Of a stretch of 64,000 nucleotides of DNA, positions 3,364-3,901 are shown in pieces. A program made the position numbers. Positions within the stretch are counted from its first letter, which is position 1. The number at the start of each line of letters is the position of its first letter. Origin of the DNA: Escherichia coli (GTDB lineage Bacteria; Pseudomonadota; Gammaproteobacteria; Enterobacterales; Enterobacteriaceae). The DNA is taken from assembly GCF_030013205.1 (NCBI RefSeq), contig NZ_CP122648.1; one strand, written 5' to 3'.

Positions 3364-3901
3364 TAAGCGTTTCTGATTCGATGATTAAAGGCCAGCCAGT
3401 ATCACAACTGACTGGCCTTTTTATTACTGCTTTAACGCCGCATACACTTGATCAACTACTTTCTGTCAGAACAGTGTATTTTGCGGCGCTGACGCTACAG
3501 CTGACAGCCAGCAGAGAAAGACAGAGCATTGTCCGTTTCATATTATCAGTCCAGATTGACGTTACGGCAGCCAAAGAGCGTGGTGAAAATAAACCCGCAA
3601 ACCCATGCCACCAGAATCCCGCCAGCATAAACCGCCATTGCCGGAAGGATGCCTTGTGCGGAAGTCATCAGCGGCAGCGCCACCAGACCAGACGGCCCAA
3701 AGGCGCTGTTTAAGCCCATCGGCAGACCCCACCAGGCTATCAATCCGATAAACAAACCGCCCGCCGCGCCGCCTAAACAGGCGGTAATAAACGGTTTCAT
3801 GCGGGGCAGGGTGACGCCATAAATCAACGGTTCGCCAACGCCCAGCAGGCCGGGAATAATCGCCCCGCGTACCTGACTGCGTAATGCACTGTGCGGTTGC
3901 G

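Follow-up and report, generated by a model that had tools for sequence, protein, structure and literature searches.

Four intact genes frame the site under study in the window, i.e. the whole 64-kb stretch of Escherichia coli DNA that was analysed. On the forward strand, yfeX (porphyrinogen peroxidase, 2467-3366), delimited from the ORF list and from the RefSeq annotation of the identical sequence of K_EC180, is the convergent neighbour of an operon carried by the reverse strand. The first gene of this operon is murQ (MurNAc-6-P etherase, 298 aa, 4974-5870), followed by murP (MurNAc PTS IIBC, 474 aa, 3546-4970, with its stop codon at 3546-3548), both being supported by the ORF list and by annotation. 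The gene of the murQ operon repressor, murR (285 aa, 6034-6891), is annotated on the forward strand. The gap between yfeX and murP amounts to 179 bp (3367-3545), in agreement with a first-pass annotation of this DNA that had placed the ends of the two genes at 3366 and 3546, about 180 bp apart. The segment 2440-4970 is 100% identical to that of about 20 complete genomes, mostly of porcine ETEC or O139:H1 strains with one bovine and one human representative, and the last 14 kb of the window align to strain ETEC4079 with zero mismatches.

In the K-12 strain MG1655, the genes follow the order murQ-murP-yfeW, and yfeW (1,305 bp) is convergent with yfeX, in agreement with the first-pass annotation, which placed yfeW between murP and yfeX in K-12. 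The K-12 murQ operon has been described as murQ-murP-yfeW, with a terminator downstream and repression by MurR (PMC5061867). Conversely, no full-length PBP4B-like ORF was found in the whole 64-kb window.

A deletion of 1,184 bp within pbp4B (yfeW), which closes the three-gene operon murQ-murP-pbp4B, has left the interval 3367-3545 as its scar. The earlier description of this gap as a spacer was correct in that no intact pbp4B lies there, but the gap is not empty, as it contains 118 nt of pbp4B; that the spacer itself is a deletion scar had been missed, as had the frequency of the allele, which is carried by about 23% of genomes and is not peculiar to this strain. The allele of strain EFF60, whose flanks are 99.4% identical to those of the window, was taken as the intact reference. 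Alignment by blastn against EFF60 gave two collinear blocks (query 1-160 and 159-321 against subject 1-160 and 1343-1505). The first covers window 3300-3459, which reaches from the end of yfeX through the spacer into the final 36 nt of pbp4B; the second covers window 3458-3620, made up of the initial 84 nt of pbp4B and the end of murP. Two nucleotides (“AC”) belong to both blocks, between which EFF60 has 1,184 bp that the window lacks. From this overlap and from the breakpoint sequences, the deletion junction is located at 3458-3459, where the dinucleotide AC forms a 2-nt microhomology present at both breakpoints.

On the reverse strand, alignment to the intact alleles assigns 3460-3541 to a 5' remnant of pbp4B consisting of the start codon (3541-3539) and signal-peptide codons 1-27. 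The EFF60 alignment together with tblastn assigns 3424-3459, on the same strand, to a 3' remnant formed by the last 11 codons (VVDQVYAALKQ) and the stop, which are out of frame with the 5' remnant. Overall, 82-84 nt of the 5' end of pbp4B and 36 nt of its 3' end were kept. When the intact PBP4B protein was searched against the window by tblastn, residues 1-29 (3541-3455, 93% identity) and 423-433 (3459-3427, 100% identity) were retrieved and nothing else. The deletion joins codon 28 to the last 11 codons, codons ~29-422 being gone, and the reading frame is disrupted since 1,184 = 3 x 394 + 2, a stop occurring two codons after the junction. Both flanks of the junction are thus homologous to the two ends of the orthologue found at the same locus and the frame between them is broken, as in a deletion-derived pseudogene. 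Over the retained spacer, EFF60 and the window differ at 4 of 178 positions.

Translation of the scar yields a frameshifted remnant ORF of 29 codons and a stop (MKRTMLCLSLLAVSCSVSAAKYTVLTESS*) at 3452-3541 on the reverse strand, which is a pseudogene. Its ATG (3541) is the original start of pbp4B and lies 4 nt past the murP stop, a spacing which is the same in K-12 and EFF60. In the identical genomes, PGAP annotates 3455-3541 as a partial pseudogene (“hypothetical protein, incomplete, missing C-terminus”). Against NF002968, the NCBIfam equivalog model for PBP4B, which is a class C low-molecular-weight PBP, the remnant scores 22.6 bits (model positions 1-28) and fails to reach the curated cut-off of 385 bits, the full-length protein being ~432 aa long; the PBP4B of EFF60 scores 893 bits. 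The active-site SxxK motif (SNTK, residue 102 of the intact PBP4B) belongs to the deleted segment and is missing from the remnant ORF. In position, the remnant still agrees with PBP4B, being the last ORF of the murQ operon and displaying an N-terminal signal peptide.

Considering that the remnant ORF has an ATG start, that it is open in six out of six deletion alleles examined and that its spacing to murP suggests that translation would still be possible, it might have been preserved to encode a small functional peptide, either secreted or located in the membrane. We regard this as extremely improbable. Among the deletion alleles, the 29 codons have accumulated six distinct amino-acid replacements, compared with none over the same 29 residues between two intact alleles that are ~4% apart in DNA, a contrast indicating that the constraint on the remnant is relaxed. 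Moreover, in B2 alleles a 2-nt indel immediately precedes the start, the C-terminal residues vary (TESS, AESS, IEGS) and an Rfam search of 3250-3650 (E ≤ 1) matched no family, a pattern fitting with neutral decay.

Concerning the origin of the deletion itself, no IS sequence is present in the window spacer. Inspection of the breakpoints by eye revealed neither IS or transposon ends, nor a target-site duplication, nor any repeat longer than the 2 nt that they share. Given this 2-nt homology and the lack of an IS, the anatomy of the junction indicates that the deletion would have arisen by microhomology-mediated illegitimate recombination or replication slippage, with no mobile element involved.

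The part of the scar adjacent to yfeX harbours a hairpin (14-bp stem with one mismatch, 6-nt loop) and a T-run, located at 3387-3422, which on the basis of folding represents a putative terminator common to yfeX and the murQ operon. The hairpin (3387-3420) folds with -26 kcal/mol, with z-scores of -6.3 on the forward strand and -4.8 on the reverse strand, and it is followed on its 3' side by TTTTT on the forward strand and by only TTT on the reverse strand. A simple consensus terminator scan of 3200-3700 made no call, probably because of the mismatch in the stem. The hairpin abuts the pbp4B stop codon in intact and deleted alleles alike, lies outside the deletion and has been retained. It corresponds to the terminator placed after yfeW in the K-12 operon (PMC5061867), and the murQP operon of the window would now end at this retained hairpin, ~120 nt past murP.

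Two other arrangements were observed around this hairpin. In W13-16, an otherwise identical O139:H1 isolate from wild boar, an IS200C separates yfeX from the pbp4B remnant and sits at or beside the hairpin (locus ~1128-1926, with tnpA at 1327-1785; equivalent to window 3367-3454). This insertion is separate from the deletion and later. In MG1655, the yfeW-yfeX spacer measures 239 bp (locus 5408-5646), compared with the 57 bp of EFF60 and of the part retained in the window, and it contains REP/BIME-like palindromes between two copies of the terminator hairpin sequence; the presence of a copy on either side implies that the repeat element was inserted into the hairpin.

The deletion allele is ordinary, common and already visible in public annotation, and a search of the literature on a pbp4B deletion polymorphism found no paper. 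A contiguous 179-nt scar probe was matched by 1,270 of the 5,426 complete E. coli genomes (~23%). A stricter 80-nt probe for the junction detected 1,149 genomes, apparently an undercount because more divergent alleles are missed. The deleted internal segment was found in 4,153 of the 5,426 genomes, nearly always as a single copy (more than one place in only two of 4,154 records), so that the two states add up to 5,423 and cover nearly all genomes. Carriers of the scar include CFT073, UTI89, E2348/69, Nissle 1917, ATCC 25922, ABU 83972, SaT040, 042, PCN033 and E. coli B C2566. Six sequences were aligned (CFT073, SaT040, E2348/69, 042, E. coli B C2566 and the window), and their junctions do not differ from one another.

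The window represents only 64 kb of its source genome, and pbp4B could in principle have been relocated elsewhere, or the gap could be an artefact of assembly. A chimeric query, made of 3 kb of the window from cysP to cysA and 700 nt of internal pbp4B, was therefore informative on a second copy; the search was DNA-based (megablast, roughly at least 85% identity) and covered chromosome records. On the closed chromosomes of six strains of the same lineage (ETEC4079, K_EC180, P15-25, EC556, EC571 and EC581), it found one place each and no second copy, as opposed to two places in each of the relatives sharing the same cys haplotype that have kept pbp4B. Across the whole collection, a single plasmid record matched internal pbp4B. 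Together with the scarcity of records carrying the segment at more than one place (the two records mentioned above) and with the recovery of the same junction in 1,270 independently assembled complete genomes, this leaves very little credence to a relocation or an artefact. The proposal of the first-pass annotation that the strain lacks a PBP4B gene is consequently upheld, 1,184 bp being deleted, the remnant being frameshifted and no other chromosomal copy being present in closed genomes of the same lineage.

The same annotation had envisaged, as another possibility, that K-12 owes its gene to a lineage-specific gain. A scan of outgroups with a degenerate DNA pattern derived from the ASNTKMYATNFA motif, using one genome per species, identified an intact pbp4B directly 3' of murP in Escherichia whittamii, Escherichia sp. 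E1V33 and Escherichia sp. MOD1-EC7003, and also in Citrobacter species, Enterobacter chuandaensis, Lelliottia, Huaxiibacter and Superficieibacter. Where the locus reaches far enough, i.e. in E. whittamii and in two Citrobacter loci, yfeX comes after pbp4B. A test for absence of the gene in outgroup Escherichia came out against it, pbp4B being present there. The gene is therefore ancestral at this site and the window displays a loss, not a gain by K-12; the conservation of both gene ends likewise favours a deletion over an insertion. A window representing the ancestral empty site, with pbp4B acquired in the line of K-12 or in certain E. coli lineages, would account for the absence of the gene here and for nothing else. 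Its likelihood is practically nil: an empty site would hold neither the initial 82-84 nt of pbp4B nor its final 36 nt, the internal segment of the gene occurs in 4,153 of 5,426 E. coli genomes, and an intact gene follows murP in three non-coli Escherichia and five other genera. The lineage-specific gain was rejected on these three grounds, namely the retained gene ends, the frequency in E. coli and the synteny in outgroups.

Two side observations emerged from these searches. A MAG labelled Citrobacter sp. (HRGM_Genome_0066) encodes murP, pbp4B and yfeX products 99% identical to those of E. coli, and this contig or the whole bin is probably mislabelled E. coli. Moreover, the exact 12-residue active-site peptide of PBP4B, ASNTKMYATNFA, is also encoded in Bacillus, Peribacillus, Terribacillus and Microbulbifer. 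Its carriers include many Bacillaceae genomes, a striking conservation of the motif across phyla; the Bacillaceae and Microbulbifer proteins are presumably PbpE/PBP4*-like homologues.

The deletion did not arise in the strain from which the window originates. At position 3448, 11 nt from the junction, six out of six deletion alleles have a T and both intact alleles a C, and at 3458 E. coli B has an A, unlike K-12. A single origin is favoured by the identical junction and these linked SNPs, and it seems likely that we are dealing with one old deletion that would have spread by descent and by homologous recombination between lineages. The sequence support for a single origin is nevertheless thin, since beyond the shared junction it consists of no more than one or two linked SNPs (3448 and 3458).

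The flanking haplotypes are mosaic among deletion alleles. The murP gene of the window is 99.86% identical to that of EFF60, in which pbp4B is intact, and 96.4-96.5% identical to those of CFT073 and 042, in which it is deleted, and the scars of the window and of 042 differ by 1 nt in 179. The surroundings of the E. coli B scar are K-12-like to within ~40 nt on either side of the junction, so that very short recombination tracts or repeated later conversion are needed to explain them. These clearly different backgrounds, in particular the K-12-like surroundings of the E. coli B junction and a window murP closer to the gene-keeping EFF60 (99.9%) than to the deleted CFT073 and 042 (96.4%), are what would be expected if the same 1,184-bp deletion had recurred independently in B2, D, E. 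coli B and the porcine lineage, the breakpoints behaving as a deletion hotspot. Such a recurrence is very unlikely, since the breakpoints share a microhomology of only 2 nt with no longer repeat seen by eye, and since an identical junction reached by chance among roughly 1,300 x 1,300 pairs of breakpoints is hardly to be expected. It would also leave aside the T at 3448 common to all six deletion alleles and found in neither intact allele, as well as the A at 3458 that separates E. coli B from K-12, and recombination in E. coli is frequent enough to produce mosaic flanks. A further change in similarity is visible inside murQ, where window 5400-5600 shows 20 mismatches over 200 nt with EFF60 against almost none across murP; this sharp rise in divergence locates a recombination breakpoint within the gene.

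Starting from this single old deletion, it could also be proposed that the loss of PBP4B is not neutral, the allele having been repeatedly favoured and moved by short recombination tracts into unrelated backgrounds. This is doubtful, with only a slim chance of being correct; the backgrounds concerned would be nearly all B2 ExPEC, 042, E. coli B/BL21 and the porcine ETEC/edema-disease lineage, and in the B2 genomes examined the deletion goes together with the loss of MurR. If true, it would imply a fitness cost, in some niches, of the expression of PBP4B from a MurNAc-inducible operon. Taken as a whole, we are highly confident that 3367-3545 is a microhomology deletion scar corresponding to an old and common allele, inherited and recombined, through which a dispensable gene was lost.

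The strain would make no PBP4B, the product of the remnant being essentially a signal peptide. The uptake of MurNAc, its catabolism and the regulation of the pathway should be unaffected because murQ, murP and murR are full length. The loss is expected to be tolerated since PBP4B is a DD-carboxypeptidase that is reportedly non-essential (according to the title of a 2006 article by Vega and Ayala), of very low abundance and one among eight class C PBPs. Its abundance has been given as ~20-30 molecules per generation (PMC4916385), and the eight class C PBPs of E. coli, including PBP4B, are known from the literature to have DD-carboxypeptidase and/or DD-endopeptidase activity. About one quarter of sequenced E. 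coli are predicted to be devoid of PBP4B, among them the genome of the window, CFT073, Nissle 1917 and BL21-type E. coli B, and lists of PBPs based on K-12 are inapplicable to the genome of the window because this protein would be missing. The 179-bp “spacer” would be better annotated as a pbp4B pseudogene remnant, and the shared junction offers a convenient neutral marker for recombination at this locus. Beyond this, the finding matters little, as it raises no new mechanism or biological question.

Elsewhere in the window, a decayed IS200/IS605 tnpA pseudogene adjoins an intact insQ, encoding a TnpB-family RNA-guided endonuclease, at 31421-33062, and two intact copies of IS200C tnpA are located at 36845-37303 and ~62356-62814. 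At ~29096, next to the tRNA-Lys/Val cluster, the repeat of the RtT sRNA shows an indel that sets the window and ETEC4079 apart from K_EC180, whose RtT region has one extra repeat unit.

Among the complete genomes, murR was detected in 4,378 of 5,426 and is missing from 1,048. The three murR-less genomes that were examined (CFT073, E2348/69 and SaT040), which we take to be of phylogroup B2, are all pbp4B-deleted as well; UTI89, Nissle 1917 and ATCC 25922 are presumably also B2 strains. In CFT073, E2348/69 and SaT040, the 909 bp corresponding to window 5961-6869 are replaced by 39 nt (CFT073 locus 6541-6579), only the last 22 nt of murR being left. This combined loss of the repressor and of the last gene of the operon suggests that murQP may be derepressed in these three strains. 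If all of the 1,048 murR-less genomes were pbp4B-deleted, ~220 genomes would combine murR with the deletion, as do the window, 042 and E. coli B.

Compared with the operon of K-12 MG1655 (b2428-b2430), the window shares the same neighbours (murR divergent, yfeX convergent), the same 4-nt spacing between murP and pbp4B and, save two substitutions, the same 29 N-terminal codons. MG1655 differs in having the full 434-codon gene and, between yfeW and yfeX, an additional ~180 bp of REP-like sequence by which the hairpin is duplicated. The deleted allele of B2 strains (CFT073, UTI89, E2348/69, Nissle 1917, ATCC 25922 and SaT040) has in common with the window the junction, the length of the remnant and its PGAP annotation as a partial pseudogene. 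Unlike the window, which keeps murR, the three B2 genomes examined are without this gene, and in CFT073 and SaT040 a further 2-nt deletion lies between the murP stop and the remnant start. Strain 042 and E. coli B (C2566) display the same junction and have kept murR, but murP of 042 is only 96.5% identical to that of the window, and in E. coli B the flanks resemble K-12 and substitutions private to this allele occur at 3445, 3460 and 3465. Finally, EFF60 and its relatives share with the window the haplotype of the cys region, flanks 99.4% identical and a murP 99.86% identical, whereas EFF60 has a full-length pbp4B. In EFF60, the nearest relative with an intact pbp4B, murP (locus 5291-6715) is itself annotated as a pseudogene with an internal stop, and this strain keeps PBP4B and has probably lost the MurNAc transporter, the reverse of the situation found in the window.
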